Assembly: GCA_903944345.1 (NCBI GenBank)
Contig: CAJARJ010000002.1
Span: 65,969-129,968, forward strand
DNA from: Candidatus Omnitrophota bacterium
GTDB taxonomy: Bacteria; Omnitrophota; Gorgyraeia; Zapsychrales; Fredricksoniimonadaceae
DNA length: 64,000 bases
Direction: 5' to 3'
Part shown: one piece after another, positions 3,115-59,532 of the stretch
Numbering within the stretch: the first letter of the stretch is position 1
Layout: the number at the start of each line of letters is the position of its first letter
Program-made: the position numbers and the translations under genes
Notes under the pieces: generated by a model
The model's input: only the letters and a program-made list of their open reading frames with translations
Database searches by the model: none
Told to the model about the DNA's origin: nothing

Positions 3115-6100
3115 TCAAATGTCTTTCGTCAACAACGAAAGGGTCATCGCCGGAGCGATCGGCACCGGAACACCGATGTGCGGAATAAACCCGTCGATGG
3201 GTATCTGCTGCAAGTCAGCTTCCGGAAAAGCATCCAATGCTTCACCTGTTTCTTTCAGATCGATACGCCGGCCGTCAAGATCGATACCGCCGGTAGCTTC
3301 CCGATCCTTGTTTATAGCCGTCTTGTCTTGCGGCGGAATCTCGGAAGCATCTGACCCCGCGACAAAAGCTTCTCCGGGCTGCAACGTTGCTGCGGCCACA
3401 GGTTTGGCAAATTCCGGATACACCTCATCATACAAATGCCCTTCACGAATACGGACGTACTCCGCTTCTTCGATCTTGCCTTTCAGGAGCTCTTTCAGAT
3501 AATGCGTTTCTCCCCATGGAGTAGGCGTTGTGTGAACACCCGCCCGGCTCCAGGTCTTGGCAGTCATCCACAGCCGCCCCCCCAGGCTGGAACGCATGGC
3601 GGCCACAGAACCAACCACTTTGGTCGCTGTAAGGATCGAAAAAAGCCCCAGAGAACTTTCTATAATCGCAGTTTCGTCAGGATCCGCTCCCTTCGGAACA
3701 TACACAGGAACATCCACCACGACCGCACTGCCTTTCCATATTCCAAGCCCGAAGAACGCCCCGGTGTTCGGGAAAGACACCTGCCGGACACTCATACGCC
3801 CGCGGTTAAGATCGTGCACCGGAACAAAATTGAGAATAATATCTCCCCGGCCAACATCCGAAGCGTGCCTGGACACAAAGTTATCCAGCGAGTCTCCTTC
3901 GTAAATCGCGGACGGGCTTGTGCCGGAGGTGCCATTGGCCCACAGGCGGGAATAATAATTACGAGTCAGCTCTCCGACGGCCTTCGGGCCGACAATAAAG
4001 ATCTTCCGTGCCCCGGTGCGCCCGAAAGACGACAATCCGGCGATCTTTGAATAGGTTTCGGACAAAAAGAACTTCAACGCGTAATTGATGAAGATAAAAT
4101 CCGCCACCCGGACAACGTAATCCATAAATTGATCCGGATACCAGTTTTGCGGGCCGGCAGAAAACATATAAAGCAGGGTTAAAGGCCCGCCGAAAAGAAA
4201 AACCGCCAAAACAATCAGATCCTTGACCCGGTCAATAACCCAGGGCCGCAGCATGGCCAGGCCGATCTTTTTACCGATCTGCGTCAATTCCTTGTTCACA
4301 TCAGAGGAGAACGAATCCCCCTTCTCATCGGTTCCGGTCATGGCACGCACGGTATCAACTCCACCATCAGCCACCGCCTTTTTGATCTCCTGGAATTTCT
4401 CGGGTGCAAATCGCAGATAAAAACCATCAGTTTCCTGCGCGCCCGCAGACGTCAAGTCCTCGGCTAATTGATAGACCAGACGTTTGGAATGATACATAAG
4501 CTGTATTTCCGATGCGGTTGGCGCCTCCGAAAAGAAATACGTTCCGGTCAGGAAAAACCTCTGATTTTCGGGATCGTCCGCCGGCTTGTCCTTGATCCGC
4601 AGCAAATCCAGAACCATCGCATCCGCACGGGAGGTCATAGCATAAACGTTGCCGACCCCTGCCAGCGCTTTCAATGCCTTGGTGGCCGTTTTTGTCGGAG
4701 ATGTCGCGCCAGACTTGCTGACCACCAGCGCCATGGTGTTTTCGTCCACACGGTAATAGTTCTGGTGCCGTTCAAAAGACTGCACAAACTGGTTGGCCGA
4801 AACAGTCTCGATCTTCAGCCCGTCAACCAGATCATAAAGCAGGTCGAACATCGCCGAGGGGATAATGAAGGAATCATCATAGCCCACCACCAGAAGTCTT
4901 GGCTCTTTGCCGCCGGCTTTAACCTCGCGCAGCTGCCGGGCAAGCCGGCTGGCCGCTTTTCTCAGGTCCGAATCAGCATTGTTCCATCTCTCATTTGCGT
5001 CGGCGACAACGGCTGTGGACATCGACAGCTCCTCGGGAACAATGCGGCTTTCTTTCTTGTACTGGACAGGGGGCGGCGCATGACGCGGATTCTTTTTACC
5101 GTCCACCATCTCCTGTGTAGAATAGAAATCGCCTCTCAGTTCCTCATCCGGGACCGCGAGCCATCCTTTGTTTAAAGGATCGTCTTTCCAGGAACGGATA
5201 TCAAACTTGCCCTCCTGATCATAGGTCAGATTCATCACCTGACCGTCTTGCAGATGAACGATCTCGTCGTACTTCTCTCCGTTTGGCCCGGGGGTCTTCA
5301 GCGTCTGGCTGTCCGATGAGGCGCCGAAAGTCATGTTGGTATGATCCAGCCCTACCGCCACATCCTGCCCGTTATTGAAAACAGTAACACCGTCGGCAAA
5401 TGCCGTGGTCTGTACAAAAATACCATACGTCCCGTCCGCACGCTTGGCAAACTCGCGCACCGCCTGCTCACGGCTTCCGGTAAAATATTTTTTCATGACA
5501 ACCGCTACCCAGAACAAACGCTGCGCCTCGACATCCAGCTTGGAATCCCTCCAGCCCCGCTCCATTCTGGCCAGCACCCTGCCCGCTTCGGAATCCGTAC
5601 CGGACTCCCGGGCCAGTCTTTGGGCCAGACGATCACGGACAGTCAAAAGCATGTCGTACTGCGCTTCCACTCCGGCTTCCGCCGCCTGCTTTCTGGAATC
5701 AAACCACAAGTCACTCAATTCCTTGACTCTCCCGGCAGGCTTGTACCCGGGTCTGGACAAAAGCTGAAGAACTGTTTTCCCGGAACTTACTTTCCGGTCC
5801 ATCTCCTGACGAAACACCTCTCCCAGCGCCTCTTCCTCGCGTTCGGACAAAAGATCTTCCATCGCATTGGACAAGAAGGAGTGGTTCGCAAACACATGTG
5901 CATACCGTACAGCAGTTTTCCAGATCCCCTGGGCCAAAAAAAGATGGATCTGGAAAGGGATGATCGGAGAATCTCCCGGAGGAAGCCCGAAGAGAGCTGA
6001 GTCCAGATGATTAAAGAACGCCTGGGGATATCTATTGAACTGCGCGCGAAAATCGTCATCCACTCCGGCAAACTTTGGCGACACGCGGCCGTTGACAATA

Positions 6101-9100
6101 TATCCGCGCCTGCGAAGTTCCTTAACAATTCTCCTGTAATCGGGGCGAAACCCTCTTTCCAGCACCAAAAGAGGATTAATATCGGCCTTCAGATAAGACG
6201 CCGTAACCTCCCCCTGGAAATAATGATGCAGCAACGCCGGGAAAACCCTGCGCATGGCCGTTGTATCGAGCGTCTGGCCAAACATGCGGGTAACGTTTCC
6301 CCCGCCCATTCTGGCGTTGTCGTTATCTCCATTATGTCCGATCACCACCATCACCTTTCTCCAGATACGCCGTAACACATTATTCTCGTCAAACGCTTCC
6401 ATGACAACCTCTTCCTCGCGGCTGGCATGAGGATGCGTTGCCTTCTTGACCAGAACCCCTCCTGTTGCAAACCGTGTATGATTGAGAATAAAAACCACAA
6501 CCGCACGACCCAGATTGTCTATGGCCTTGGCTTTGGCAGGTATCCCCTTGATGAAGGCCTTGACATTGCGCCCGATCAGATCCGGAGCGAACACCGGACC
6601 GGTTCCTTTCTCCCAACGCAGCCAGCGTTTGGGTTTGAGCATTTTACTGATCCAGGCTTCAGAATTTTCTCCGTCGGAACTATACACCAGTGCCAGCCCG
6701 AGAGCCTGGCCGCCGCGAGCCTCAAGTGTGCGCATCTCACTCTCAAGTTTCGGCATAAGTTCCTGAACCGTTTTGAGAACAACCCCCGGACTATTGTCCT
6801 GCGGAGCAATGCGGCCTCCCCGGACTTCAATGCCGCAACGAACCAGCGCATGACTCAAGGCAGAAGCGTTCACGACCCCCAGAACGGTCATCGCCAGAAG
6901 CGCAGGAATAGCCAGCTGGGTTGCCGCGGCACCTGCGGACAAAACAAGGAAAGTGTGCACGGAGAACCAGCCCAGAGTCAGCAAAGACAACAATCCCCGC
7001 GCCCATAACGGCACGGCATAGGCCGGTTTCGCCTGACGGCTGTTCCCCTCCGGTTTTCCTTCAACCGGAGCGGCCAATATCTCTCCTGTTGCGTCATCCT
7101 GTTCAAGTTCGTGCAGCCCAGACAGAATCTCTGCATTCTCATTGCCCCCCTGCCGGGAGACCGCGGGCCGAGCATCGGCCAAGAGTTCAGCGGCATTCTC
7201 TCTTACGGTAGCCCCCTGACCGGCTGTTGTTGCAGGAGGAACTTCATCACGAAAAACGACCGTTGGATCATCTTTCTCGGGCTCCATTGGAGCTTTTGTT
7301 CCTGTCCTCAAAACTTTCTGCTGTTTTGCGGTACGCTTTTTACCAAAAAGAAATGCTCCGCCCAGAAACAGCAATCCGCCTAACAGAGAATACACCCGGG
7401 GATCCCTCAGGCTGATCTCGGGCCACTCCATCCCGGAAACCCCACCTTTTACTTTATCGATCAGATACTGCCTGAAAGACGTAAACCCGGCCAATTCTTC
7501 GCGGGCAGGCTGTACAAAAGACGGCTCAGCCACAGCTGCGGCGGGAGCCTGCACAGTCGATGAAGCAGGCGGTTGCGTAGTTAGCTCCTTTTGATCCCCC
7601 CCCCGATCTGGAACAGTTACAGGGATCACTGCGGGGGCTTGTTTGACCGGAACAGACAAAGCCGGCAAAGCCCGCAGCACTTCTTCAGGAAGCACCGCAT
7701 TAATTACCAGCGGACGGTACGGAGCAACAGGATCCGCCTGGTCTCCTCCCAAAGTCTTGACCACGCCGCCTTTGCCGTCTTTTCCCCACATGGAGCCGTA
7801 AAATCCCGAATGTTTATACCCTTCGGGATTCAATCTTTTATACGTCGTACGGATCCGTTGAACCGCATGACCGTAGGTCTCCCCGGGCTTTAGTTCGACA
7901 ACTGTTGCCTTTCCGTCGGAAGACGGGGCAAACGCCGCGGCATGCGACATGGCCACAGGCGCCATGGCCAGCGTCACCCCAAGCGCCAGCGAACGAACCA
8001 GTCCGGAAGACAGCATGGCCTGGTCAACCGGCTCAAGCTGCAAAGGCGTACGTAAAAGATCTGAAGACATCGCGCCATCAAGGCCAGTCAAAGGCAATTG
8101 TGTTTCACGGTAAGGCCCAGCTGGCTGATTCAACCCGGAAAGCATCACTCCACCCGAGAAATACTTGCGGGGAATCATCTGCGCATCAACAGGGTCGTTT
8201 TCTTCCTTGATATAGGAATAAACCCCTTCTTCTACCGACCTCAAATACCGTTCAAAAATTTCCTGACGCAATGCCGGAGCAACACTGTCAATGCCGCGCA
8301 CCTTGTTTTGCCCCACATAACGCGTTCCCACTACCGTTGCGGCTTGATGACGTTTGTACCATGTGGCCAACACCAGCGCGTTATAGACCTGCCTTACGGG
8401 AGCAAACAATTCTCCACCATTGACATCCCGGCGTAGAACCGGAAGGATCATCTGACGAAATACATCCGTGTATATCCGGGCCACTCCTTCTTCTTTGGCG
8501 GTCAGCTGCGAATCCTGAAGCAATTGATAGTCGGTATCCGTAAGCACATCTAAAGAGGTATCGGTCACAAAAACGCTGTTATTACGCGTGTAAACAGTTG
8601 CCGTGGATGGAATAATCCACACTTTATTAATATTTCCGGCCGGAATATCTGTTGTTCCATACTCGGCAAACACCCTGCCGTAAACTTCTTTCCAGAAGGC
8701 TGCTCCCAAAGAAGTTTCCGGATAGGTTAAAGAGGCGGCTTTCTGTTTGAGTAAATAATCCTGCTCCATCAACACCTTGCCCATTTCCGTACGAGCAAAT
8801 GTTTCGGGCATAACGCGGTCGCGGCCATCCGGAGAAAGGTTCACCCACATATCCTGGTCGGGAACAGCCAAAGACGCCAGAAGGAACTGACTCAACCGGG
8901 CAATCCCTCCACGCAGATTCTCATTATCGGCCAGCGAAGAGCCTTTATCCACAATCAGATCAAAACGCAACGGATCTGCAGGGTAAACTTTCAACCCCTT
9001 GAGCGTCAACGGATAATAAACCCCCGGGGCCGGTACAGCAGGAAACACAGCCGGCAGACTTCCGACAGACTGTGCCTGCAACAGTTCCGGAAGTATGGCA

Positions 9101-9168
9101 CTCCAGAACACAAAGAACGACACCATACAACAGCACACTCTAAACCATATCGCCCTGCAATCTCTCAT
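3115..9168 (-). CDS. giant (2017 aa) secreted/membrane multidomain protein, paralog-family member 1; hydrophobic leader ending AQS, unassigned conserved N-domain, 3 internal hydrophobic segments, SIS/PGI-like and Ntn-amidotransferase-like motifs, conserved C-terminal tail
   Basis: 6.05-kb uninterrupted ORF. N-domain residues ~35-420 align with ORFs 40793-45073, 45083-49078 and 54725-56869 (WVNLSP, G[RK]xL[LM]xQDYxLKQ, NKVWI[IV]P, PRKYFSGG). Internal VVSKSGATSPTKT (SIS/PGI-like) and VVIGHNGDNDN (HNG-type). C-terminal GGIDLDGRRIDL...DGFIPHIGVPVPIAP tail. Confidence 0.85.
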   Translation of the reverse strand: MRDCRAIWFRVCCCMVSFFVFWSAILPELLQAQSVGSLPAVFPAVPAPGVYYPLTLKGLKVYPADPLRFDLIVDKGSSLADNENLRGGIARLSQFLLASLAVPDQDMWVNLSPDGRDRVMPETFARTEMGKVLMEQDYLLKQKAASLTYPETSLGAAFWKEVYGRVFAEYGTTDIPAGNINKVWIIPSTATVYTRNNSVFVTDTSLDVLTDTDYQLLQDSQLTAKEEGVARIYTDVFRQMILPVLRRDVNGGELFAPVRQVYNALVLATWYKRHQAATVVGTRYVGQNKVRGIDSVAPALRQEIFERYLRSVEEGVYSYIKEENDPVDAQMIPRKYFSGGVMLSGLNQPAGPYRETQLPLTGLDGAMSSDLLRTPLQLEPVDQAMLSSGLVRSLALGVTLAMAPVAMSHAAAFAPSSDGKATVVELKPGETYGHAVQRIRTTYKRLNPEGYKHSGFYGSMWGKDGKGGVVKTLGGDQADPVAPYRPLVINAVLPEEVLRALPALSVPVKQAPAVIPVTVPDRGGDQKELTTQPPASSTVQAPAAAVAEPSFVQPAREELAGFTSFRQYLIDKVKGGVSGMEWPEISLRDPRVYSLLGGLLFLGGAFLFGKKRTAKQQKVLRTGTKAPMEPEKDDPTVVFRDEVPPATTAGQGATVRENAAELLADARPAVSRQGGNENAEILSGLHELEQDDATGEILAAPVEGKPEGNSRQAKPAYAVPLWARGLLSLLTLGWFSVHTFLVLSAGAAATQLAIPALLAMTVLGVVNASALSHALVRCGIEVRGGRIAPQDNSPGVVLKTVQELMPKLESEMRTLEARGGQALGLALVYSSDGENSEAWISKMLKPKRWLRWEKGTGPVFAPDLIGRNVKAFIKGIPAKAKAIDNLGRAVVVFILNHTRFATGGVLVKKATHPHASREEEVVMEAFDENNVLRRIWRKVMVVIGHNGDNDNARMGGGNVTRMFGQTLDTTAMRRVFPALLHHYFQGEVTASYLKADINPLLVLERGFRPDYRRIVKELRRRGYIVNGRVSPKFAGVDDDFRAQFNRYPQAFFNHLDSALFGLPPGDSPIIPFQIHLFLAQGIWKTAVRYAHVFANHSFLSNAMEDLLSEREEEALGEVFRQEMDRKVSSGKTVLQLLSRPGYKPAGRVKELSDLWFDSRKQAAEAGVEAQYDMLLTVRDRLAQRLARESGTDSEAGRVLARMERGWRDSKLDVEAQRLFWVAVVMKKYFTGSREQAVREFAKRADGTYGIFVQTTAFADGVTVFNNGQDVAVGLDHTNMTFGASSDSQTLKTPGPNGEKYDEIVHLQDGQVMNLTYDQEGKFDIRSWKDDPLNKGWLAVPDEELRGDFYSTQEMVDGKKNPRHAPPPVQYKKESRIVPEELSMSTAVVADANERWNNADSDLRKAASRLARQLREVKAGGKEPRLLVVGYDDSFIIPSAMFDLLYDLVDGLKIETVSANQFVQSFERHQNYYRVDENTMALVVSKSGATSPTKTATKALKALAGVGNVYAMTSRADAMVLDLLRIKDKPADDPENQRFFLTGTYFFSEAPTASEIQLMYHSKRLVYQLAEDLTSAGAQETDGFYLRFAPEKFQEIKKAVADGGVDTVRAMTGTDEKGDSFSSDVNKELTQIGKKIGLAMLRPWVIDRVKDLIVLAVFLFGGPLTLLYMFSAGPQNWYPDQFMDYVVRVADFIFINYALKFFLSETYSKIAGLSSFGRTGARKIFIVGPKAVGELTRNYYSRLWANGTSGTSPSAIYEGDSLDNFVSRHASDVGRGDIILNFVPVHDLNRGRMSVRQVSFPNTGAFFGLGIWKGSAVVVDVPVYVPKGADPDETAIIESSLGLFSILTATKVVGSVAAMRSSLGGRLWMTAKTWSRAGVHTTPTPWGETHYLKELLKGKIEEAEYVRIREGHLYDEVYPEFAKPVAAATLQPGEAFVAGSDASEIPPQDKTAINKDREATGGIDLDGRRIDLKETGEALDAFPEADLQQIPIDGFIPHIGVPVPIAPAMTLSLLTKDI

Positions 9169-19861: not shown

Positions 19862-20700
19862 GTCAATTGACGCTTGATATAACGCCGGGTATTGCGCTGG
19901 ATAAGATCCCTGGAGCGCTGCAAATCATAAGCTCCGCAAAGAAAACCGGTAATCTCCGGCACTCCGATCATTTTGGCGGCGGAAGCAGACAATTTCAGCT
20001 CCTGCAAAGCTTTTATCTCCTCGACCAGTCCAAGGGCGAACATATCCTCAACCCGGGCATCAGCCCGTGCGTAAAGTTCCTCCCGGGGACGATCCAGAAA
20101 AAACAATCTTACCCGATAACGCCCCCCCCACAGGCCAACCCTTTCTCCCTGCAGGGAAGAAAGCGTGCGTCCTTCCAGGGCAAATATCTCCAGTGCACGA
20201 ATAATCCGCTGACGATCATTGGTCTTGATCTTTGCCGCCGAGACCGGATCAACCGCGCACAGCCGGTCATACAAGCATGAACAGCCGCGCCGCGCACATT
20301 CGTCCTCGAGCGCCTGACGCAAGGCCGGATCCGGTTGACGGGAGGATTCGAATATCCCGTCCAGAAGAACCGCCATATACATCCCGCTGCCTCCGCAGAA
20401 TACCGGCAAACGGCCACGGGACAAAACATCCTCAAAAGCAGAACAGGCTAGCGTACGGTAACGCCCTGCATTGAAAAGCTCCTCAACCGAAACACAACCG
20501 AAAAGATGATGCCTGACGGCTGCCATAGCCGCAGCAGAAGGCCGGTCACTGGCAATCCGGATTTCCCGATAGACCTGCAAAGCGTCACAGGAAATAATTT
20601 CCCCCTGCAGACAAGCGGCCAGCTCAAGAGCAACGGCGGACTTGCCCACCGCGCTGGGGCCAACAATAAAAACAATATCGCTCGATAACGATGTCTTCAC
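19759..20700 (-). CDS. miaA: tRNA dimethylallyltransferase
   Basis: P-loop GPSAVGKS near the N-terminus; MiaA length and motifs. Confidence 0.9.
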   Translation of the reverse strand: MKTSLSSDIVFIVGPSAVGKSAVALELAACLQGEIISCDALQVYREIRIASDRPSAAAMAAVRHHLFGCVSVEELFNAGRYRTLACSAFEDVLSRGRLPVFCGGSGMYMAVLLDGIFESSRQPDPALRQALEDECARRGCSCLYDRLCAVDPVSAAKIKTNDRQRIIRALEIFALEGRTLSSLQGERVGLWGGRYRVRLFFLDRPREELYARADARVEDMFALGLVEEIKALQELKLSASAAKMIGVPEITGFLCGAYDLQRSRDLIQRNTRRYIKRQLTWFRREARLEHIGIPCGQSPAQTAAFIAQRLAEV

Positions 20701-21574: not shown

Positions 21575-22123
21575 TCAACGCAAACGGGTTCTTGAAATCA
21601 CCATAGTGCCGCGCAATTCCAGAAAAGATTCGGAATACTTCTCCAGTCGCAAACTCCGGATCTCCACACGATCACTTGCCGATCCGGTCTCGAACAAAAA
21701 CCGGGCAACCCCTTTCCATCCCCCCTCGAAAGACACCTCAAGCGGATAAATAAAATAATACTCCTCCCCGATCACTGAAGCGGGCTGAATATTGAGAATC
21801 CGCACGCCGGACTTCCTGGCCAGAGCATGAACCCGGGAAGACATCGAAGATATCTCCGCCCCCTCTCCCGATGACCTGCCAAAAACACCAGCCAGAACCC
21901 CAAGCTTCTTTTCATAAAGCTGTTCCCGCGCCAGCTCGGCCCGGGCTTCACGCAGACGAAAAGCGGCCGCTTTAATCTGATCCCGCGTTGCACTGCCATA
22001 ACCCGGCAATCCGTCAGCAAAGAAATTTCTGGCTGCGAAAAACAGACACAACACAACACAGATCAGCGCAATAAATTTTTCACGCGCGGACACCTTGATC
22101 ACAAGTCCTCCTTCATGCGACAA
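21575..22123 (-). CDS. gspM: type II secretion system protein M-like (GspM/PilO-like)
   Basis: 182 aa bitopic protein at the end of a gspC-to-L co-linear operon. Confidence 0.45.
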   Translation of the reverse strand: MSHEGGLVIKVSAREKFIALICVVLCLFFAARNFFADGLPGYGSATRDQIKAAAFRLREARAELAREQLYEKKLGVLAGVFGRSSGEGAEISSMSSRVHALARKSGVRILNIQPASVIGEEYYFIYPLEVSFEGGWKGVARFLFETGSASDRVEIRSLRLEKYSESFLELRGTMVISRTRLR

Positions 22124-26382: not shown

Positions 26383-26396
26383 AACAATCTCCCGGT

Positions 26397-27641: not shown

Positions 27642-27650
27642 ACCATGTAC

Positions 27651-29330: not shown

Positions 29331-29365
29331 TATGATAGCCCCGGAATATTCTCGTCCAGAAAGAA

Positions 29366-40792: not shown

Positions 40793-43700
40793 TTAAAGAA
40801 GCTTCAATAACTGCCGGAGGTCCTCAACATAAGTCACACCGGAAATCTCCGGATAAAAACCGCGAAACCCCTGCCCAAGACCTCCCCGCGGGATAGCAAT
40901 ATCCGCAAATTCTGTCGACGAGCCTTCTTGCGGATCCAAAGAAATATTCTTGATATCAATTCCGCCATCAATAACCGTCTTTTGCGGATTGACCGGCATG
41001 GCGGCATCGGCCCTGGCCTCTATCACCTGCTGCAGGAATTCAAACGTGGCCTGGGTTTCAAACCCGATAAGGGTCACATTGTCCGGTTTGCCTTTTGAAC
41101 CCTGCGTATTGACCCCCAGGAACCTGACACTGGAAAGCCGCTCATTCTGCGTCAGTTCAAAGTCATTGCCTGCCAGATACTCTCCGCTCTCTGTTACATA
41201 ACGGTACAACTCATCCGCAAAATAAAAAACAAACCCGGGATTCAGCCGGTTGGTATCTATAAAATCCAGCATGGCCAATGCTTTACCCGCATTGGAACTT
41301 GTCATATCGCTGGAACTTGTGCCCGCAGGCCCCATTTTGTAGTAAAGACCGTCCCGGGCTTCTTCTTCACTCATCGGCAGGGCAACAGCCCGCCGAAGCG
41401 CAGGACGCACATCTGTTGAAACACCATCCCGTCTGAACGGCGGCAAAGGGCGCACCGTCACGCTGGCCGCGGCCCCGCTCGTAATCACATTCGCCTCTCC
41501 CCTCATCTCGATCCACGGAGATGCCAAAGCCTCTCCGGCGGACAAGCGCCGGGACACCTCCTCAGGCGTCAGAATTTCTGCCTGCCAGGAATCATCGGTC
41601 AGCCAGGGAAGAACAATATTGGCATTCGTGGATTCCTTGACAATATAAGCCCGCACCGCTTCCAAATAGGCCTGCCCGTCACCCAGCCAGTCTTTCAGGT
41701 TCTGCGGCGACAAGGCCGCGCGCAAAGCCTCCCCGGCAGGCGGCAAGGAAAAAGCATGTGCGATGTTATACGCGTCATCCAGACGAGCCTCTCCTTCCCC
41801 GGAAAAACCTACTTTTGTAGCGCCGCCATCGACGTAAAGGATCAATTTCTGCAAAGCCTGCGGGTGATCCCGCATCTCTTCTCTGATCGCCTGATAAATT
41901 CTTTTTATCTGCTCCTTTCGGGAGTTTCCCGATATAATAGCCACCCGTACGTCCATCCGTAAAAGCAGCATGAACAAATGGGCCAGTTGCCTGTACTCCG
42001 CCAACCCGCCCGAGCCTTTTGGCAAAATCGTCTTGTCGACATCAAACACAAAAGCTCCGGATTCCTTGATCTGAGTCCAGTTGGATACAATATAACGAAT
42101 AATTTTTTCTACCGAGCTCTTCCCATGAAAAAGTCCAAGTTCGCTTTCTTTGCCCCGCACGTCCTCGGAAAAGATCAGTCCGGTTGTTGAAGAAAGGGCA
42201 AAGCCGGCCTGCTGCAGCCCCCGCAGAGTCAAAACCGAATCAATCAGCGCCGTGAACGAGGCCGTTGAACCAAGGCTTGATCCATCGGAAGAACGAACGT
42301 TCAACGCCCGCACACGATGTCCGGCTTGCGCTTCCATCTGTTTGAGTTTCTGAGGAAGCCCCTGAACATCAACATCTTCCTGCACGCCAGCCAGCACATA
42401 ATCCACCAAAGATCCCCGAATTGGCAGCGCTTCGGGTTGCATTTGCGAATACGTAGAAACTTTCTTGAGCGCCTCCGGCAATCGCTCAACCGCTTCCGGA
42501 GAAAGATCCTCTGACACAAGAACCTTGAGGGCCTTCTGGGCTTTGGCTATAGCCTGAGCGCCTCCCGGAACAACCAAAACTCCGCCCACATCGGTTTCAA
42601 TATTACCCGAATAAAACAGAATATCCGCCGAGGAAAGAATATTTTCAACTCTTTCTTCCAGGGGCTTTTTCATGGCTGAGGATGAAAGATACACGGAAAA
42701 ATCATTCAGCCGGTCTGCGGGAAGCCTGCGGGTTGTTTCCTCGATTTCCTGACGAGTGTCCTCGGGAAGAGTTTCTTCCTTGTATTCCATGAGAGCTACA
42801 TCATTAATATTATCTTTCCGAAGCGTTTTGTGCAACAAGGGATCAACCAGCCATAAGCCCAGCATTTCCTCTTTCCTGCTGAAATAATTGAGTGCGGTCT
42901 GGGACGTTAACAGGAGTCCCGTTTTTGTTAACCCCACCATAAACCCTCTGTCCCGAACAGGAAAAACCACTTCGTGCCCTTCCCGCACATCCAGCAAGCC
43001 CGCCAAGGCATCAACCGCGCCCTGCCAGTCATCTTTTTTCCCTTCCAGAACACCTTTTTGTACCATCCCCAATAAAAGAATGGTTCGGATGGGAACATCG
43101 TTCAAAGAAAACTCCCTGTTCCCTCCGGAAGTTCGGGGCAAATCTTTCCAGGTTCTGAGGAAAGCATCAAGATATCCGGCAATCTGCTTTCTCTTGTCAA
43201 GATCCATGGAAAGCGCCAGATTAAAAAGTTTTTTGATATCCGGGTGAAGGTCGCTTCCTTTGCTTGGATCAAACAGACTCTGAACGAGCTTATAAAATTC
43301 ATCCTCGAGAACATTCGGAGACAATGCTTCCGAAAACCGGGCATCGCAAAAGTCGGCCACATAACTGTCCCTGGCCAGATCCACAAGAGCACGCCCCGCC
43401 GCTGTAATCCCCGTGGCGTTAAAAACCCTGGCTCCATAAAACCAGCTGAGCCCGTCTCCGGTCCCACTGGCAATAACTTTAATATTAACATTGGGGCGAG
43501 CCTTGAGTTTTCGCGTCAGCGAACGCTGGCCTCCCTGATGAAAGAAAACGACATTAAGGGGTTTTCCCTCGGAGGCCATCGAATCAATCATGGCCTCCTG
43601 ATCAAAGAAAGAATTGAAAAGCTGTACTGCTTTCTGACTCTCGATCCCGCCCAGCACCGGCTTCTTCGGAGTGCCCTGGCGGACATTCTGTTCGGCATGC

Positions 43701-45073
43701 AGTCGCCACAAAAGAATACGATAAATATCTTCCGCGCGCTTGAGGATCGTCCGGTCCTGGATACTTTGCACCAGCAATGCCGGATGCCCGATGAAAGATC
43801 CGAGATCCTGGCCTTCCACTTTGGCGTGAATACCCAAATTGCTCAATTCATCAACGAGCCGCGCAATGCGTGCATTACGCACGGAAACAAGACGCGCTTC
43901 CTCATCCCTTTCATAAGAAGATGGCTGTGCCGCATCCGCCGGAGGGGCTGTCATTTCCATCCGGACAAGGCTGGCCTGCCCCAAAGACCGCACGGCGGCA
44001 GCGGAATCCGTCTCAACAAGCCGGATATCGCCCAAACGCTCTCCGCCGGAGAAATACCGGCGTGCGACTACGGCGGTGTCAGGCAAAGCGTCCTCCCGGA
44101 TATAATCAAAAACGCCTTGCCGGAAAGCTTCCATATAGCGGGCATAAAGGGCTTCTTTCCATTCCTGCTCGTCGCTCAAAACACCCGACACAAGGCGGCG
44201 ATCCATGTATGTCCCGCCCAGAAACGATCCGCGGATCTGCCCGCGATACCATTTGGCCAGAATAGCGGCATAATAGATCTGGCGCATGGGCGCAAACGCG
44301 GCCCCCTCGTTGATTTCGCGTTCCAGACGAGGAAGGATGACTTTTCGCAGAGCAGACCGGGCGGCCTCACTGCTGCCGGGATTCTGCCCGGACAAAACCT
44401 GATCCTCATCCATCATAACCCGAAGAGTGGCTTGTGTGATATAAACGGCATGTCCTTTGACAAATATCTGCGCTTCCTGCGGCATGATCCAGATCTTGCT
44501 GAAAATATCCACCGGGATATCGGCTCCCGCGGCATTCTCCCTTATCCCGGCATACACCCCGGACCAGAACTCCCGCCCCAAAGCGGTTTCCGGATAGATC
44601 AACGAAGCGGACAGCTGTTTGAGAATATAATCCTGCGCCAGCATGTCGCGGCCAAGAACCGTCCGCCCAAGATCTTCATCAATCATGCGGTCTTTTTCGT
44701 AAGGAGAAAGATTGACCCAAAGCTGATCTTCCGGAACCGTGACCGCGGCCAGAAAATACTGCGCCATGCGTTGTGTTTCGCTGCGGATAAAAGCCTCGTC
44801 CGACTTGTCCTGGCCGGAATCCATAATAAAGTCAAGTGTAAACGGACTCTCGGGGTGGATCACCAGTCCACGGGGAAGAATCGGCGTTCTTGCCCCGGAT
44901 AAATTGATCCGTTCCCCCGGTCGGGGAAGCCCGGAAACAAAAAAGCTTTGAGCGTGTCCCGTTGTTGCGGACACACTCAAAGCCAGAGACAAGGTCACCG
45001 ATAAAATACGACGAACCCGAACGGAGTTAATCAGCGCCGGCATAATCCCTGTCTCCTTGAAAAAACACGGCAA
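40793..45073 (-). CDS. giant (1426 aa) secreted multidomain protein, paralog-family member 2; HAD-like DxDxT module near the C-terminal third
   Basis: Signal peptide ...GHAQS, the conserved N-domain, internal VFDVDKTILP...AIISGNS...YVDGG (HAD-like motifs I/II/IV), and C-terminal GGIDIKNISL...RGFYPEISGVTYVED tail. Confidence 0.85.
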   Translation of the reverse strand: MPCFFKETGIMPALINSVRVRRILSVTLSLALSVSATTGHAQSFFVSGLPRPGERINLSGARTPILPRGLVIHPESPFTLDFIMDSGQDKSDEAFIRSETQRMAQYFLAAVTVPEDQLWVNLSPYEKDRMIDEDLGRTVLGRDMLAQDYILKQLSASLIYPETALGREFWSGVYAGIRENAAGADIPVDIFSKIWIMPQEAQIFVKGHAVYITQATLRVMMDEDQVLSGQNPGSSEAARSALRKVILPRLEREINEGAAFAPMRQIYYAAILAKWYRGQIRGSFLGGTYMDRRLVSGVLSDEQEWKEALYARYMEAFRQGVFDYIREDALPDTAVVARRYFSGGERLGDIRLVETDSAAAVRSLGQASLVRMEMTAPPADAAQPSSYERDEEARLVSVRNARIARLVDELSNLGIHAKVEGQDLGSFIGHPALLVQSIQDRTILKRAEDIYRILLWRLHAEQNVRQGTPKKPVLGGIESQKAVQLFNSFFDQEAMIDSMASEGKPLNVVFFHQGGQRSLTRKLKARPNVNIKVIASGTGDGLSWFYGARVFNATGITAAGRALVDLARDSYVADFCDARFSEALSPNVLEDEFYKLVQSLFDPSKGSDLHPDIKKLFNLALSMDLDKRKQIAGYLDAFLRTWKDLPRTSGGNREFSLNDVPIRTILLLGMVQKGVLEGKKDDWQGAVDALAGLLDVREGHEVVFPVRDRGFMVGLTKTGLLLTSQTALNYFSRKEEMLGLWLVDPLLHKTLRKDNINDVALMEYKEETLPEDTRQEIEETTRRLPADRLNDFSVYLSSSAMKKPLEERVENILSSADILFYSGNIETDVGGVLVVPGGAQAIAKAQKALKVLVSEDLSPEAVERLPEALKKVSTYSQMQPEALPIRGSLVDYVLAGVQEDVDVQGLPQKLKQMEAQAGHRVRALNVRSSDGSSLGSTASFTALIDSVLTLRGLQQAGFALSSTTGLIFSEDVRGKESELGLFHGKSSVEKIIRYIVSNWTQIKESGAFVFDVDKTILPKGSGGLAEYRQLAHLFMLLLRMDVRVAIISGNSRKEQIKRIYQAIREEMRDHPQALQKLILYVDGGATKVGFSGEGEARLDDAYNIAHAFSLPPAGEALRAALSPQNLKDWLGDGQAYLEAVRAYIVKESTNANIVLPWLTDDSWQAEILTPEEVSRRLSAGEALASPWIEMRGEANVITSGAAASVTVRPLPPFRRDGVSTDVRPALRRAVALPMSEEEARDGLYYKMGPAGTSSSDMTSSNAGKALAMLDFIDTNRLNPGFVFYFADELYRYVTESGEYLAGNDFELTQNERLSSVRFLGVNTQGSKGKPDNVTLIGFETQATFEFLQQVIEARADAAMPVNPQKTVIDGGIDIKNISLDPQEGSSTEFADIAIPRGGLGQGFRGFYPEISGVTYVEDLRQLLKLL

Positions 45074-45082
45074 ACTCTTTTT

Positions 45083-48000
45083 TCAGCGTGAAGGAACAAT
45101 CCCCAGCAAGCCGGCCAACCCCGTCATGGGAGTAATCCTGATAATCGTCCCCCTCAATCCGCGAGACTGCTCAACGAGAGTTTCCAACGACTGGCCACCC
45201 AAAACATCCGCGCTCCATTCTCCGCTGCGCTCGACATCCAAAGCGCGGGCATCGATACCACCAGTTCGCTCAACCGCTTGGGAAGCGTCCAGTGCCGCGA
45301 CCAAATCACCCAAAAAAGCTTTCAGGTTTTCACTGCGCTGATAGAGTGTCACAGGAGCTTTCTGCCAGGCCTCAAGCCAGGCATCAAGGGCGCTTCTTGA
45401 CTCGCTGAATTGATCAGCAGGGAAAAAGGCCCTCAAATAATCCGGAAAATACGGCATCATGCCGTCGAGTGAATTAAAACCATGTCTCCTTTGAACATCT
45501 ACAATCGTCTTATAGAAACCTTCCAGCCCGGGCCGGGATTCTTCGGAGAACATAAACCCGTTAAACTGGAAAAGTCCAACGCCATCGGGATTCTCTGTCC
45601 GGACTTTCGTCCGTACCGTCTGGTCAGGCAAGCCCACGGCAATAGCTTGGACGGCCAATATTTTTTCGCGCGCCTCATCTTTCTTCTTTTTCAGGACGTC
45701 CTGGGCCCGGTACAACATCGCCGCCGCTGTAATGGCTCCCGTCTGGGTCTTGTTCAACAACCGGCCCAAAGCCGCCCCGCGAAAAAATCGATCCCGCTCC
45801 AGATCCCAGACGTTCTTCATCTCTCTGAATTTCTGTTCCCAGGAAGACGGATCCTGATAGCTCAACATCAACAGGTTCCCGACCGAATTAGCCTCCCCCG
45901 GGTTCCATGGTTTCATATTATCCGTTGTGCCGCCATCCCGATGATCAAATGCAATCTGGATCGCCATGTTGGGCTGAGGGTTTTCCTCCAGCACTTCATG
46001 CGCCCCCAATGTTCTCTTGTTAAGAATAATATATCCGTTCACCATTCCCAGAAGCGCAATTTTCTGCTCCTCGGTAAAATGCTGTACAAAGAAAAACTGT
46101 CCGGGATAACGGTTTTCGCCTCTGGCCTTGGCCTCTCTGCGTTCACGATTAATCTTGAACTCTATATCCCGGTATTTGCGAGCCAGCTCACGACTGGGAT
46201 CTGTATCCTGAAGATTTCCCTGGATCACAACTGAATACCCCATATCCACCAGCATCGGAATCAGCCAATAGGGGTCGAATGCATTCTTTTCATCCACCAG
46301 CCGGCGGGCGTTCCCCAAAATAGGGTTATCCGTGTTCACATCCACATACAAAGCCGCACGAACCTGATCCGTGGCTGTAAAGCCGGCATTCAGAGTCTCA
46401 TTGGCCCATTTAAGAATGACCGCAAGCTCCATATTGTTGAGTGCTTCAACAGATCTTCCGTACTGCTCTCTGGCCCTGGCCTCAAGCAGTTCTCCGTTAG
46501 CTGTTCTGACCTTCATCTGATTGTAGCCTTGCGCGGTTCTTTTCTTGAGACGCGCAACATCTGTGGGAGACAAATAATCGATATCCGCAGTTGCTGCGAT
46601 CTCTCCTTCCTGTTGAATGCGACTAAACGTCTGTTCAAGAAACGCCGCTATCTGTTTAGGATTGTCTCCATTGGTCGCCGCCGTCAAAGGAAGCCCATAA
46701 AGAGTACTCATGTGCGCAGCATGACTCCGGCTGACACCCAGTCCGGCATCGGCCAGCCTCAGCCCTCCCCAGGTAAGATTCCCAAACAGGCTGGAACCCG
46801 CTGCAGGCCCTCCCTGCTCCGGATCCCACCATCTGTCAATGTAAGCCGCTCCGGAAAACTGCGCCGGAAGGTGCATCAAATTTTCTGCCAGATGTCTGGC
46901 CTGTTCCAAAGGCAGTGTCTGGGCGTTAAGAATGGTATGCGTCGAGTCCAGGATCACCACATTGTCCCGGGACAAGCCCGGCAACTCATGCCCTCTGATG
47001 GCCTGCACAAGAGGTGCCGCCTGTCCATCCTGGGTATGTACTATAATTAAAGGGTAACTTCCGTCAGCCTTCCGGTCCCTGATCTGCTGACGAGACAAAA
47101 ACGCCTCGGAGGCCAACGCAAAAAACGCGACCGACTCTTCCATAGTGACGGGATTATTCGGCGCTTCAGCAGATTTATACATATATAATCTGTTGGAGAA
47201 CTTGTTCCATTCGTCACGGATATAATATCCTGTGACCCCGGCCCGGTTTTCACCTTCCTCAACAATGACCGGAACCCGCTCGGATCCCACTTCAATATCA
47301 AATCTGTCAACTTCATGCAAATTCTTCACTCCGAGATTCCTTCTTCCCGAACCGTCATCATCATAATATAGCGGTTCTCCCCCGGGAACTCCGGTATCAA
47401 ATCGCATGGCGTACTTAAGCTGAATCGACCGAACCCTGGCTCCCAGCCGTGTCAGAAACATGGAATGCGTCTCATTAACAGGGCCCAATCCTCCTTGTTT
47501 ATAATCCATCTCAACTGTAGCGAAATAATACGTTATATCGTTCAGAAGAGGCATGCTTTCTTTGACAAACGCATCTGTATACCGACCCGTCATCAACAGC
47601 ATCATATTCATGAGTCTCGTCCTGTCTTTTGCAGGAACCGACTCGATCGCATCCATCAACCCGTTGAGCTGCTCTTGCGGCAATAGCGCCACAGCCTTGG
47701 TGACAGCCCACATCCCCTGAACAGGATTCCCCCGGATAACCTCAACATCGTACTGAAGAGAATACCGTGTCATCAGTTTTTTGAACTCTTCCTTGAATCT
47801 GCGTACTGAGAGCCTTGCCAAGCCCTGAAACTCGACTAAAATTTTCTCAAACCGTCCGATTGCGTTCCACTGCTCTGTTGTTTCCGGAACAAACTGCGCC
47901 CTGACAGCTTCGTCAATAATCTGGGAACCGTCCACCGCTTCAAGGCTGGCCGCGATCCTTTGTAAAGGACGTTCTGCAAAAGCCTCGACTTCCTGTGCCT

Positions 48001-49078
48001 GGGCCGCGTCCTGGCGAATATCCCCAACCGCAAACCCGCCGGAGAAATACTTCCTCGGGAAATCCTCACCGGTGACAGGATCGGTTTCTTCCTTTATATA
48101 GTTAAAAACACCTGTCCGGTAAGCCGCCATATACTGCTCGTAGATCAGTTCCTTGTTCTTCGGATCACTTAAATCGATCCCGGCAACCTTGCTCTTTCCG
48201 GAATAAACTTTGTTAAGAACGCTATCCTTGAGCGCCTTCTGGTACCACTGCGCCAGAACCAGCGCATAAACAACCTGACGCAGGCGGGCAAAATTGGCCC
48301 CTTCATTCACTTCCTGTTCAATGGCCGGAACGATCAGCTCGCGTAAAATATTCTTGGTCAGTTCTTCTTCGGGAGTACCTGTTGCAACGGCATTCTCCTG
48401 CTGGGCCTGATGGTCCGCATCCAGCATGACCTTCATTTCCGCTCCGGTTATAAAAACAGTATTACCTTTCTCGAACACCCGGGCCCGCTGAGGCACAATC
48501 CAGACTTTATTGAACGCATCAACCGGAAGATCCGTCACACCAAATTTTTCCCAGGCCTGTGCATATATTTTTTGCCAGAAATCATGCCCGAGATTCTCTT
48601 CAGGATAAATCAGAGAAGCCGTCAGCTGTTTCAGAACATAATCCTGTGCCAACAAATCCCGGCCCAACTCTGTCCGAATCAATGCTTCGGGAACAATCCG
48701 GTCTGATTCGACCGGCGAAAGGTTGACCCACAGATCCTGTTGCGGAACAGTAAGCGCAGCAAGAAAGTAGTTAATCATACGCTGGGAGTCATCACGCAAC
48801 TCCGCTTCACTTACAAGCAAAGAACCGGGGTCAACAATAAAATCAAGATCAAGCGGACGGGAGGGATCAATTGTAATTCCGCGCAACAAAACAGGTTCGA
48901 TCGCTGCTGAAAAACGCACCATCTGTCCCGGTGCAGGCAGCACCTCTCCGGTTACCAGAGCCTGGGCGTAACCAAGAGCAGGCTCACAACAAAGAATAAC
49001 CGCTAATAGAAATGCCAGAAAACGCCGCATGAAATGTCCTCCCGGTTTTGGATGGTTACGAAGAACGTGATTAAACAA
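45083..49078 (-). CDS. giant (1331 aa) secreted multidomain protein, paralog-family member 3; possible GT-B glycosyltransferase/glucan-phosphorylase-like module
   Basis: Signal peptide ...GYAQA and the conserved N-domain. Internal DYKQGGLGPVNETHSMFL and GGTTDNMKPWNPGEANSVGNL weakly recall GT-B/GT35 motifs. C-terminal GGIDARALDV...RGLRGTIIRITPMTG tail. Sits 9 nt upstream of member 2. Confidence 0.85.
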   Translation of the reverse strand: MFNHVLRNHPKPGGHFMRRFLAFLLAVILCCEPALGYAQALVTGEVLPAPGQMVRFSAAIEPVLLRGITIDPSRPLDLDFIVDPGSLLVSEAELRDDSQRMINYFLAALTVPQQDLWVNLSPVESDRIVPEALIRTELGRDLLAQDYVLKQLTASLIYPEENLGHDFWQKIYAQAWEKFGVTDLPVDAFNKVWIVPQRARVFEKGNTVFITGAEMKVMLDADHQAQQENAVATGTPEEELTKNILRELIVPAIEQEVNEGANFARLRQVVYALVLAQWYQKALKDSVLNKVYSGKSKVAGIDLSDPKNKELIYEQYMAAYRTGVFNYIKEETDPVTGEDFPRKYFSGGFAVGDIRQDAAQAQEVEAFAERPLQRIAASLEAVDGSQIIDEAVRAQFVPETTEQWNAIGRFEKILVEFQGLARLSVRRFKEEFKKLMTRYSLQYDVEVIRGNPVQGMWAVTKAVALLPQEQLNGLMDAIESVPAKDRTRLMNMMLLMTGRYTDAFVKESMPLLNDITYYFATVEMDYKQGGLGPVNETHSMFLTRLGARVRSIQLKYAMRFDTGVPGGEPLYYDDDGSGRRNLGVKNLHEVDRFDIEVGSERVPVIVEEGENRAGVTGYYIRDEWNKFSNRLYMYKSAEAPNNPVTMEESVAFFALASEAFLSRQQIRDRKADGSYPLIIVHTQDGQAAPLVQAIRGHELPGLSRDNVVILDSTHTILNAQTLPLEQARHLAENLMHLPAQFSGAAYIDRWWDPEQGGPAAGSSLFGNLTWGGLRLADAGLGVSRSHAAHMSTLYGLPLTAATNGDNPKQIAAFLEQTFSRIQQEGEIAATADIDYLSPTDVARLKKRTAQGYNQMKVRTANGELLEARAREQYGRSVEALNNMELAVILKWANETLNAGFTATDQVRAALYVDVNTDNPILGNARRLVDEKNAFDPYWLIPMLVDMGYSVVIQGNLQDTDPSRELARKYRDIEFKINRERREAKARGENRYPGQFFFVQHFTEEQKIALLGMVNGYIILNKRTLGAHEVLEENPQPNMAIQIAFDHRDGGTTDNMKPWNPGEANSVGNLLMLSYQDPSSWEQKFREMKNVWDLERDRFFRGAALGRLLNKTQTGAITAAAMLYRAQDVLKKKKDEAREKILAVQAIAVGLPDQTVRTKVRTENPDGVGLFQFNGFMFSEESRPGLEGFYKTIVDVQRRHGFNSLDGMMPYFPDYLRAFFPADQFSESRSALDAWLEAWQKAPVTLYQRSENLKAFLGDLVAALDASQAVERTGGIDARALDVERSGEWSADVLGGQSLETLVEQSRGLRGTIIRITPMTGLAGLLGIVPSR

Positions 49079-54724: not shown

Positions 54725-56869
54725 TTATATTGATATCCCGGCAACCGGACGAATGGACAAAATGGTGGGCACAAAGCCGTCCACCTGCAGGCTTTCCAGA
54801 TCCTGTTGCGCCACCGGCAAAGGAACCCCCTTGCCGTCCCGGCGAATCTGCATGTCCCAGTTGGCAGAATTCAGATCAATACCACCAACGGCATCCTTGT
54901 TCTGCAAAGACGCAGCCTCGCTAACAGCCTGCCCCGCATCAATATTGGAGCGAGCCTGAACTGCAGTCAAAACCGCTCTGATATCCGAAGCGTCAAACCG
55001 AAACTCAGATAACTGCAAGCCGCGCCCGAACTGATCATCCGTAAGAACTCTATCTATATCCAAACCCGGGTCAAAATAAGCAACCCGATCATTGCTCTGG
55101 TCTGGCAACAATAGACCATGTCCAAGCAAGGCATCAAATATGTCCGGAGCCCTGTCCTTGAAGACCGCAACAAAATCCGCGGGGGTCACACGCACTTCAA
55201 AATCCGGTCTCTGCCTTTCAGCCCAGACGCGGGCCAAGGCTCTTAAAACATAGTTGACAACATTAACCTCATTGGCCGGATTCACCCGCGAACTCTGCTG
55301 CATCAAGATTGTCAGCAGACGCCTGATCGATGGCAGTTGCTTGACTTCATTCCAAAGACGCTCCAGCTGATTGATATCCTTAACATCGTCTGGATTCATC
55401 CTCACTTGCTTTGCCGAAAAGTCAAATGCCGGCAGCAACCGTCGCCACTCTTTGGTCATGATGGAAACGGACACATTAAAAGCCTCTATGTCTATAGGAC
55501 TTCTCTCGCCATCGGCTTGCGCGCTGCCTTCTTGCAATATCTGCTCTATCTCGGGAACATCTACCTCGTCTCGCCCCAGAATATCCGAAGCATCCAACCC
55601 AAGACTTTCCAACAATAGCGGCAAAACATACGACACCGGAGCCCCGTTCTGAGCGGCATCGGCGATATCGCCCATTCTCTTTGGTTCCAGAAGTGCTGCA
55701 GCAGAATCAAAAGCCGCGTCTTCCAGTTGCCGCGCGGCATCACGGGCCGCCAACGGCAAAGCGGCATAATCAGAAACAATTTGTAATTGGGCTGGATCCT
55801 GTCCGCGCGCCAACCCGCCGGAAAAATATTTACGGGGGATAAGTTCCTGCGAATACTGATCCACATCCTCCCGGATCATGTTAAAAACCCCCTTGCGAAA
55901 AGCCTCCATATATTGTTCCCAAATCATGCGATTGGCCGAACATTCTGCGCCCTTGCCGGAACAGTCAGACTGGTCAATCCCTGCCACCCGGGACTGATCG
56001 GCATAGACCCGCCCCAGAATAGATTCCTTGAGCGCCCGCTTGTACCAGGTGGCCAGAACCATAGCTGTACAAATCTGGCGCAGAACAGTAAAACTTTTTC
56101 CCTGGTTAACCTCGCGCTCTATTTCCGGAACAATAACATCCCGTAAAACTTCGGACGACAAACGGACAAACTCCTCGTCATCACCCACCGGACTGTTGAG
56201 CACGGGCGCGGCCTGTCCAGCCTGGCTCTTGTAGGCCAGATAATCTCTTTCGGTCATAACCCGCAGGCGCTGGGTCAGAAGATAGGCTGTTGTTCCTTTT
56301 TCGTAGACAACAGCCGTGTCCGGAATAATCCAGACCTTGTTAAAACTTTCCAGCGGCACATCCGCAGAACCAAATTTCTCATGCGCCCGGCGATAGAACT
56401 CACTCCAGTACTTTTTCCCCAGCTCGGTATCGGGATGCGTCAAGGAGGCCGCCAACTGTTTAAGCAGATAGTCCTGAGCCAGAAGGTCTCGCCCCATAGC
56501 TGTCAAACCAAACTGATCATCAACCAGCCGATCCCCCTCATAGGGCGAAAGGTTAACCCACTGATCGGTATCAGGAATAGTCAACGCCGTCAGGAAATAT
56601 TTGACCAACCGGGTATATTCTTCCTGTTTCTGATCCGGCGTCAGGGCTGCGTCTCCCTTACGAATAAGAAAATCAAATTTCAGGGCATTCATCGGATCAA
56701 TGGTTACGCCCTGCAAATAGGCCGGAGTGAAAGCCTCCGATGGGGGCAGCAGTGTTCCGGGTTCAGGCATAAGCTGCATAACAGATTGTGCCTGCGCCAG
56801 ACCGGTCGGCGGACGCACACAGCTCCAGCCAAATATAACCAATAAAAATATCGCAGTGACTCTTTTCAT
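54725..56869 (-). CDS. secreted protein (714 aa), minimal member 4 of the giant-protein paralog family (N-domain plus C-terminal tail, short middle)
   Basis: Signal peptide ...GLAQAQS and the conserved N-domain (WVNLSPYEGDR, GRDLLAQDYLLKQL, NKVWIIP, PRKYFSGG). C-terminal GGIDLNSANW...DGFVPTILSIRPVAG tail. Confidence 0.85.
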   Translation of the reverse strand: MKRVTAIFLLVIFGWSCVRPPTGLAQAQSVMQLMPEPGTLLPPSEAFTPAYLQGVTIDPMNALKFDFLIRKGDAALTPDQKQEEYTRLVKYFLTALTIPDTDQWVNLSPYEGDRLVDDQFGLTAMGRDLLAQDYLLKQLAASLTHPDTELGKKYWSEFYRRAHEKFGSADVPLESFNKVWIIPDTAVVYEKGTTAYLLTQRLRVMTERDYLAYKSQAGQAAPVLNSPVGDDEEFVRLSSEVLRDVIVPEIEREVNQGKSFTVLRQICTAMVLATWYKRALKESILGRVYADQSRVAGIDQSDCSGKGAECSANRMIWEQYMEAFRKGVFNMIREDVDQYSQELIPRKYFSGGLARGQDPAQLQIVSDYAALPLAARDAARQLEDAAFDSAAALLEPKRMGDIADAAQNGAPVSYVLPLLLESLGLDASDILGRDEVDVPEIEQILQEGSAQADGERSPIDIEAFNVSVSIMTKEWRRLLPAFDFSAKQVRMNPDDVKDINQLERLWNEVKQLPSIRRLLTILMQQSSRVNPANEVNVVNYVLRALARVWAERQRPDFEVRVTPADFVAVFKDRAPDIFDALLGHGLLLPDQSNDRVAYFDPGLDIDRVLTDDQFGRGLQLSEFRFDASDIRAVLTAVQARSNIDAGQAVSEAASLQNKDAVGGIDLNSANWDMQIRRDGKGVPLPVAQQDLESLQVDGFVPTILSIRPVAGISI

Positions 56870-59524: not shown

Positions 59525-59532
59525 TCCATAGA

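Follow-up and report, generated by a model that had tools for sequence, protein, structure and literature searches.

A conserved C-terminal GGID tail accompanies a large N-terminal domain in a family of putatively exported Omnitrophota proteins

Four members of a protein family are encoded in a 64,000 nt stretch of contig CAJARJ010000002.1 of a Candidatus Omnitrophota bacterium (assembly GCA_903944345.1, hereafter the window), and all four carry a conserved C-terminal element, the GGID tail. In every interpretable gene of this family the tail is coupled to one N-terminal domain of ~330 amino acids (aa), here called the N-domain, and it is never free-standing. The four proteins (p714, p1331, p1426 and p2017) have a hypervariable middle between these conserved ends. 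We propose, with a probability of about 0.4, that the GGID tail and the N-domain are the two halves of an Omnitrophota-specific scaffold, in which the tail would act as a tethered peptide docking on the N-domain, so that all members present the same handle on their variable exported cargo. Exported paralogs that share a conserved C-terminal element are a known idea, whereas such an element tied obligatorily to a large N-domain of unrecognised fold, with a hypervariable middle in between, is not.

The GGID tail and its N-terminal partner

Within the gene set of the window (20,449 aa), GGID occurs exactly four times, each time in one of the four paralogs and 53–59 residues short of its C-terminus, and random placement of four motifs would give this arrangement with a chance of ~(28/20449)^4, or roughly 3e-12 (order 1e-12). 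The four open reading frame (ORF) translations are as quoted in an earlier reading of the same DNA (the sequence-only reading), which had proposed a conserved C-terminal motif on these paralogs, and the motif itself was confirmed, with several of its details revised. The region assigned to it, 3115–3330, contains the p2017 copy, but the other three tails are located at 40796–40966 (p1426), 45086–45262 (p1331) and 54728–54886 (p714). The gap between GGIDx and [DR]G[FL] had been put at 10–25 residues and measures 27–30, the fifth motif residue can be L or I as proposed but also A, and the motif ends 6–20 residues ahead of the stop codon rather than at the extreme C-terminus.

The canonical member is p714 (54725..56869, minus strand), which consists of a signal peptide, the N-domain, a 309-aa middle and the tail GGIDLNSANWDMQIRRDGKGVPLPVAQQDLESLQVDGFVPTILSIRPVAGISI, and is identical to P0001, which is encoded on at least nine metagenomic contigs. 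Its tail was detected by the tail hidden Markov model (HMM) at E 1.2e-28, and is the only window copy with the full family consensus, GGID[FLM]-x3-NL-x2-QIKRDGxGVPLP-x2-QQ[DN]L-x2-I-x-IDG[LF]VPxIxxIxP, of which ~45 aa are conserved and which is followed by about 6–58 variable residues. The other three copies, also on the minus strand, are degenerate. The tail of p2017 (3115..9168), GGIDLDGRRIDLKETGEALDAFPEADLQQIPIDGFIPHIGVPVPIAPAMTLSLLTKDI at 3118..3291, scored weakly (E 1.5e-4) and was placed in the family alignment, while that of p1331 (45083..49078), GGIDARALDVERSGEW...GQSLETLVEQSRGLRGTIIRITPMTGLAGLL, was marginal (E 3.4, at the correct position) and is kept in the 85% identical ortholog P0249. 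In p1426 (40793..45073, orthologs P0245–P0248) the tail GGIDIKNISLDPQEG...GFRGFYPEISGVTYVEDLRQLLKLL was missed by the HMM, and aligns with the tails of orthologs (35–37% identical) that match the HMM at 1.9e-9 and 9e-8 and have GGID...GFxGFxPxIxxIsPV in common with p1426. Since the orthologs match the tail HMM or keep the tail, the weak tails of p1426 and p1331 are degenerate homologs and not chance similarities. All four window copies retain GGID and the final G[LF]xxxIxxIxP strand, and GGID...G[LF]xPxIxxIxP lies within about 110 aa of the C-terminus in the four paralogs, in the case of p1426 via its orthologs.

The N-domain was matched by these four proteins only among the window ORFs (local HMM, E 1e-103 to 1e-172), with E-values of 9e-172 for p714, 4e-133 for p1331, 1.6e-105 for p1426 and 3.6e-103 for p2017. 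Together with the signal peptide it occupies 55814..56869, 48035..49078, 44042..45073 and 8149..9168, respectively, all on the minus strand. The N-termini of the four paralogs comprise K/R, a hydrophobic run of 12–15 residues and AQA or AQS (MKR..GLAQA/QS in p714), followed by the N-domain, and signal-peptide-like N-termini with AQA/AQS sites were present in every family member examined, from which we infer export of the family proteins. A lipoprotein reading was dropped because some members have no Cys near the signal peptide. The N-domain displays the invariant motifs WVNLSP, DYLLKQ, KVWIxP and RKYFSGG, the last of which forms its end, and its invariant residues include Ser, Lys and Asp, with no invariant His or Cys.

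Searching 1.84 billion cluster representatives with a 64-position tail profile identified 3,657 protein clusters at E <= 1e-3, of which 1,687 reached E <= 1e-10, with the match reaching or nearing the C-terminus in every protein among the matches listed. Family-wide, the distance from GGID to the C-terminus has a median of about 61 residues and goes up to about 100. Both the recurrence of the motif outside the window and its conservation in orthologs, on which the sequence-only reading had made its claim depend, were thus found. In addition, a degenerate DNA pattern encoding QIKRDGxGVPLP matched at least 120 stretches in a genome set with a single representative of each prokaryotic species, with the QIKRDG match starting 41–104 aa (median 58) ahead of the stop codon. 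These stretches were derived from metagenome-assembled genomes (MAGs) of Omnitrophota/Omnitrophica, from Candidatus Elulimicrobium or Zapsychrus, and from MAGs under the placeholder names 'uncultured Planctomycetales' and 'bacterium'. All named homologs were from Candidatus Omnitrophica/Omnitrophota, and the tail family was restricted to Omnitrophota-type MAGs among the matches listed in the DNA scan. One MAG alone yielded at least eight of the stretches. Tandem arrangement of family genes is frequent, as in L022 (2773–6488), L097 (1559–7653, reverse) and L124 (2–3900, reverse); many genes in MAGs are interrupted by a frameshift or an in-frame stop codon that separates the N-domain from the tail, which could represent assembly error or pseudogenisation. 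Neither the family nor its motifs were described in the searchable literature, including Omnitrophota papers and preprints, in keyword and motif-string searches.

All 123 pattern matches in these stretches scored with the tail HMM, and the N-domain was present in 52 of the 61 tail ORFs that were uncut by a locus edge, among the loci listed. Of the nine exceptions, some start no more than a few hundred bases from where a contig or locus ends, and others contain a scaffold gap or come right after an N-domain ORF that a frameshift or in-frame stop has cut short; one is a 68-aa remnant behind a complete member. A further 84 tail-bearing database proteins had no N-domain and were mostly short; three long ones (638–665 aa) begin 11–84 nt from a contig end and are therefore 5′-truncated. 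Conversely, all seven N-domain ORFs encountered incidentally in these loci carry the tail once frameshift-split genes are joined, and GGI[DN] was located 40–75 aa from the end in 118/120 best homologs of p714, the other two being a fragment and a GGIS variant. The tail was therefore seen only together with the N-domain, unlike a self-contained sorting tag that can be placed on unrelated proteins, and the idea of a sorting or processing signal put forward in the sequence-only reading was only partly supported.

Predicted structure and the proposed scaffold

AlphaFold monomer models were obtained for p714 (51-sequence alignment) and for the shorter member P0044 (112-sequence alignment), and were judged by the predicted local distance difference test (pLDDT). 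In the p714 model the core of the N-domain had a pLDDT of 85–94 over most of residues 40–280, whereas the middle was poor, and the final segment of the tail formed an 11-residue strand (698–708, pLDDT 87) behind a linker in which residues 606–675 and 685–696 were below 50. The P0044 model had a mean pLDDT of 76, a linker (494–529) below 50, and two confident tail segments, 531–540 (LDMQIKRDG, pLDDT 88) and 561–570 (LVPVILDIRP, pLDDT 89). Because isolated confident segments imply packing, and the N-domain and the tail are the only parts that p714 and P0044 have in common, these models suggest that the tail docks on the N-domain.

We propose that each family protein, with its layout of Sec-type signal peptide, N-domain, hypervariable middle, disordered linker, ~45-aa tail and short variable end, would be exported by the Sec pathway, after which the tethered tail would fold back and dock as one or more β-strands on the N-domain. 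Docking would close the protein into a loop and create a composite, invariant handle, common to all paralogs whatever their cargo. As to the role of this handle, we infer that it, rather than the tail alone, would be recognised by a common partner, which might be an envelope machine or further family members. Should the handle turn out to serve sorting or assembly, it would be a new device of that kind.

Several observations weigh against docking in cis. The p714 and P0044 models disagree on which tail segment is confident, and GGID, the most invariant piece of the tail, has a low pLDDT in both models (33–51 and about 40), as does the invariant WVNLSPYE loop of the N-domain (p714 residues ~103–112, nt ~56534–56563; pLDDT <50 in both); low confidence for GGID and the loop would fit a missing partner in trans. 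The tail strand, whose contact is read from pLDDT alone, could also pair with the middle region instead of the N-domain. A mutual-information scan of N-domain against tail (112 sequences) gave one notable column pair, 96 and 555 (z 5.8), which probably reflects subfamily structure. Approximately 20% of the members (41/207) have one predicted hydrophobic helix in the middle, and if this single helix were membrane-spanning, the tail and the N-domain would be on opposite sides of the membrane. Three of the four window paralogs combine strongly degenerate tails with well-kept N-domains, and the full tail may thus be dispensable. Finally, a tail that stays nearly invariant over thousands of paralogs is easier to account for by a single external partner common to all of them than by contacts in cis that are private to each protein.

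No Pfam, NCBIfam, PHROGs or PADLOC model matched the N-domain or the tail in searches with the four paralogs, canonical tails and short members, and searches against PDB sequences with single proteins and three profiles gave chance-level matches only. An isopeptide-forming strand like that of SpyTag (VILDIKP versus IVMVDAYKP) was also considered, and was rejected because the Asp position is variable across the family (D, N, S, E or G).

Omnitrophota are widespread, uncultured and mostly ultra-small. With at least 3,657 clusters, several copies per genome and no Pfam, NCBIfam or PDB entry, the family proteins are candidate mediators of cell-cell interaction in this phylum. The tag GGID...QIKRDGxGVPLP...VPxIxxIxP retrieves the whole repertoire from any Omnitrophota genome or proteome, and makes localisation, processing and host targeting directly testable.

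Variable middles and comparison with known export systems

The middles vary in length between about 150 residues and more than 1,600, and 41 of the 47 long members had no known domain in this part. The remaining six had a Pfam domain, with Response_reg found twice, and fn3, a methyltransferase, LysM and a doubtful COMMD1_N once each. Precomputed Pfam accessions elsewhere in the family include WD40-like, DnaJ, low-molecular-weight (LMW) phosphatase, glycosyltransferase family 2 (GT2) and hexapeptide-repeat domains. In the window, the middle of p1331 is glycogen-synthase-like, with a sub-threshold match to Pfam Glyco_transf_5 (GT5; E 8.6e-4, 19.5 bits versus a cutoff of 22.7 bits), p2017 has a weak NCBIfam GlmS match confined to residues 894–922, and the p1426 ortholog P0247 carries a precomputed PF01933, which we take to be the CofD/YvcK-type family. 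By eye, a stretch of p1426 (FVFDVDKT) looks HAD-like. Several of these domains usually function in a cytoplasm, which is odd behind a signal peptide; preprints describe the same oddity for giant Omnitrophota proteins.

A strongly hydrophobic 19-mer was found by crude hydropathy in the middle of 54/207 members, 41 of which had one such segment, 11 two and 2 four; examples are P0029 (~549–572), P0017 (~758–781), P0088 (~421–442) and p2017 (725–776, 1648–1672 and 1840–1858). Many of these segments resemble internal signal peptides or lipoboxes after K/R (e.g. ...krsIAGRVLAVMLPVVLSLTGCk...), which suggests that whole pre-protein genes may have been captured between the conserved ends. The borders of the middle are marked by a short motif, D-x-A-[MQ], present within 90 aa after RKYFSGG in 120/207 members and within 40 aa before GGID in 74/207, where the density inside the middles predicts about 0.16 and 0.07 per such stretch, an enrichment of 4–5 fold at both borders. 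Such border motifs in the window are DGAM364, DQAM382 and DASE1940 (nt 3340–3351) in p2017, DAAQ380 and DAAM1356 (nt 40997–41008) in p1426, DAAQ357, DGSQ383 and DASQ1264 (nt 45278–45289) in p1331, and DPAQ358 and DAAQ404 in p714. D-x-A-[MQ] could be a hinge or a processing site.

In place of docking, the tail might serve as a C-terminal sorting or processing signal, with a dedicated enzyme or secretion machine reading GGID...QIKRDG...VPxIxxIxP and the N-domain having a separate role; the candidate machines are the phylum-wide type II secretion system (T2SS)-like secretin system and a protease or transpeptidase, possibly cleaving at the invariant Gly-Gly. We regard this as rather improbable, even though a short linear motif so extremely conserved over thousands of paralogs, its fixed C-terminal position, the signal peptides on all members and the location of GGID in a segment disordered in AlphaFold, as is often the case for cleavage or recognition sites, all speak for it. 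The sorting signals of the GlyGly-CTERM, PEP-CTERM and LPXTG type are tripartite, with a motif, a transmembrane (TM) helix and a basic cluster within about 20–35 aa, and resemble the GGID tail with its invariant Gly-Gly in being short C-terminal motifs on signal-peptide proteins with many copies per genome. However, LPXTG sortase substrates are defined by the motif, a TM helix of ~20 aa and a basic cluster, none of which is present in the GGID tail (LPXTG being judged by reading), and the family proteins have no NCBIfam match to PEP-CTERM at E 10, nor a TM helix or basic end. In GlyGly-CTERM proteins the Gly-Gly abuts the TM helix, whereas it precedes 51–57 non-TM residues in the window tails, again with no NCBIfam match. 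The maximum 17-aa hydropathy of the tails has a median of 1.42, the most hydrophobic part being the conserved strand itself, and K/R make up 7% of the last six residues.

Sorting tags of the LPXTG, PEP-CTERM and type IX secretion system (T9SS) kind sit on otherwise unrelated proteins, which contrasts with a tail that never occurs without the N-domain. The T9SS C-terminal domain (CTD), an autonomous β-sandwich of 70–100 aa on otherwise unrelated Bacteroidota proteins, shares with the GGID family a Sec signal peptide, a diverse functional part, a C-terminal element across many paralogs and restriction to a phylum, but the GGID tail is ~45 aa, is modelled as strand plus coil and is obligatorily paired with the 330-aa N-domain; no CTD model in Pfam or NCBIfam matched the tails or the whole proteins. 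Type I secretion system (T1SS)/RTX substrates lack an N-terminal signal peptide, and have GGxGxD nonapeptide repeats and an uncleaved C-terminal signal, unlike the GGID proteins with their signal-peptide-like N-termini, single GGID and absence of repeats. The statement in the sequence-only reading that the motif matches none of LPXTG, PEP-CTERM, GlyGly-CTERM, T9SS CTD and T1SS thus held, with no NCBIfam or Pfam match at E 10, no TM helix and no basic end.

Genomic context offers little for a dedicated machine either. When ORFs of 110 aa or more were clustered across 120 loci, no neighbour gene was recurrent (the next largest cluster after the family-derived ones covered 7 loci, and two other large clusters we take to be antisense ORFs over the conserved part of the family), and neither the dedicated protease or transpeptidase that had been anticipated nor any secretion gene recurred beside the family genes in these loci. 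To our knowledge, T2SS substrates have no known linear signal. The window does contain a gene cluster resembling a T2SS or type IV pilus (T4P) system, and a T2SS locus is reported to be conserved across Omnitrophota in a preprint (10.1101/2023.11.21.568195), but at 21.5–31 kb the cluster lies some 10 kb or more away from even the closest of the four genes and is adjacent to none of them, contrary to the sequence-only reading.

It is unlikely, though less so, that the tail acts in trans as a donor strand inserting into the N-domain of a second molecule, whether of its own paralog or of another, as in strand-exchange pili, resulting in chains or in a mixed surface coat with the variable middles on display. 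Such head-to-tail assembly would account for the invariance of both ends across the paralogs of a genome, for the long disordered linker, for neither end occurring alone, and for the many, often tandem copies per genome (four in the 64-kb window, at least eight in one MAG, and the tandems of L022 and L097). In donor-strand pilins the strand completes the sheet in cis before assembly and in trans afterwards, and type V and chaperone-usher pilins would resemble the GGID family, should its tail dock as we propose, in having a flexible terminal strand that completes the β-sheet of a conserved domain. The GGID family differs by its lack of pilin fold or sequence similarity and by the huge variable insert between acceptor domain and donor strand, and no usher, chaperone or lipoprotein-processing context was found. 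Furthermore, monomer AlphaFold models do not separate cis from trans, the oligomers would be hypothetical, cytoplasm-type middles (receiver, methyltransferase and glycosyltransferase domains, and the DnaJ accession) would be ill-suited to a surface coat, and the tails of three of the four window paralogs are degenerate.

Alternatively, the conserved ends may form an effector-delivery platform that carries enzymatic cargo into host or prey cells with cleavage at the boundaries (D-x-A-[MQ], Gly-Gly), by analogy with MARTX toxins, which we consider improbable. The combination of a signal peptide with middles that would need a cytoplasm (Response_reg and methyltransferase by hmmscan; the precomputed DnaJ, LMW phosphatase and GT2; the sub-threshold GT5-like match; PF01933 on an ortholog) argues for such delivery, as do the many domain-less middles, which are reminiscent of fast-evolving effector sets, and the enrichment of D-x-A-[MQ] at both borders. 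MARTX toxins have long glycine-rich repeat ends, are exported by a T1SS without a Sec signal and are processed by a cysteine protease domain; they are similar to the GGID family in their invariant ends, swappable middle cargo and possible boundary processing motifs, but the family has none of those MARTX features in Pfam or NCBIfam, and no sequence or fold similarity. Predatory or parasitic lifestyles, which would also favour delivery, have been proposed for Omnitrophota (PMC10066038). Against delivery, passage beyond the inner membrane, cleavage and host contact would all have to be assumed, no similarity between the N-domain and any translocation domain was detectable, and the family genes are located among housekeeping genes, outside secretion islands.

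The shared handle, trans assembly, sorting signal and effector delivery are not fully exclusive of each other. A wider proposition, which we hold to be doubtful, is that the family represents a phylum-wide, undescribed system for sorting, assembly or effector delivery, in which a new-fold N-domain and a clasping GGID tail would surround hundreds of cargo modules per lineage, whole captured pre-proteins and cytoplasm-type enzymes among them, for dispatch to a surface coat or to a host or prey cell.

Other features of the window

The window has a G+C content of 52% and is a chromosomal stretch with nearly all genes on the minus strand and a mainly housekeeping gene content, including accD-like, DUF1015, dnaJ/dnaK/grpE/hrcA, clpB, hflX, miaA, secA, prfB-like, ychF, uvrC, murJ, holA and lptE genes and a gene for a BamD-like lipoprotein. 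The T2SS/T4P-like cluster is located at 21575–30964 on the minus strand, and encodes a secretin with N0 domain (29366–30964), a GspE-type ATPase with MshEN domain (27651–29330), GspF (26397–27641), a pseudopilin with N-methylation motif (24458–25135) and PilN/PilO-like proteins (21575–23544), next to a SPOR/TPR protein (20697–21503).

The region 56959–63516 is probably an integrated mobile element. It contains, all on the minus strand, a partial ComEC 'Competence' ORF (56959–57717, with the match beginning at profile position 26), a large serine recombinase (57549–59312), several unknown genes including a 768-aa ORF (60427–62733), and a Replic_Relax protein (62743–63516). A serine recombinase was also found at the p714 gene on one other contig (L001). 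The p1426 and p1331 genes directly adjoin each other (40793–49078, minus strand), and their products may share a sugar or phospho-sugar substrate located outside the cytoplasm.

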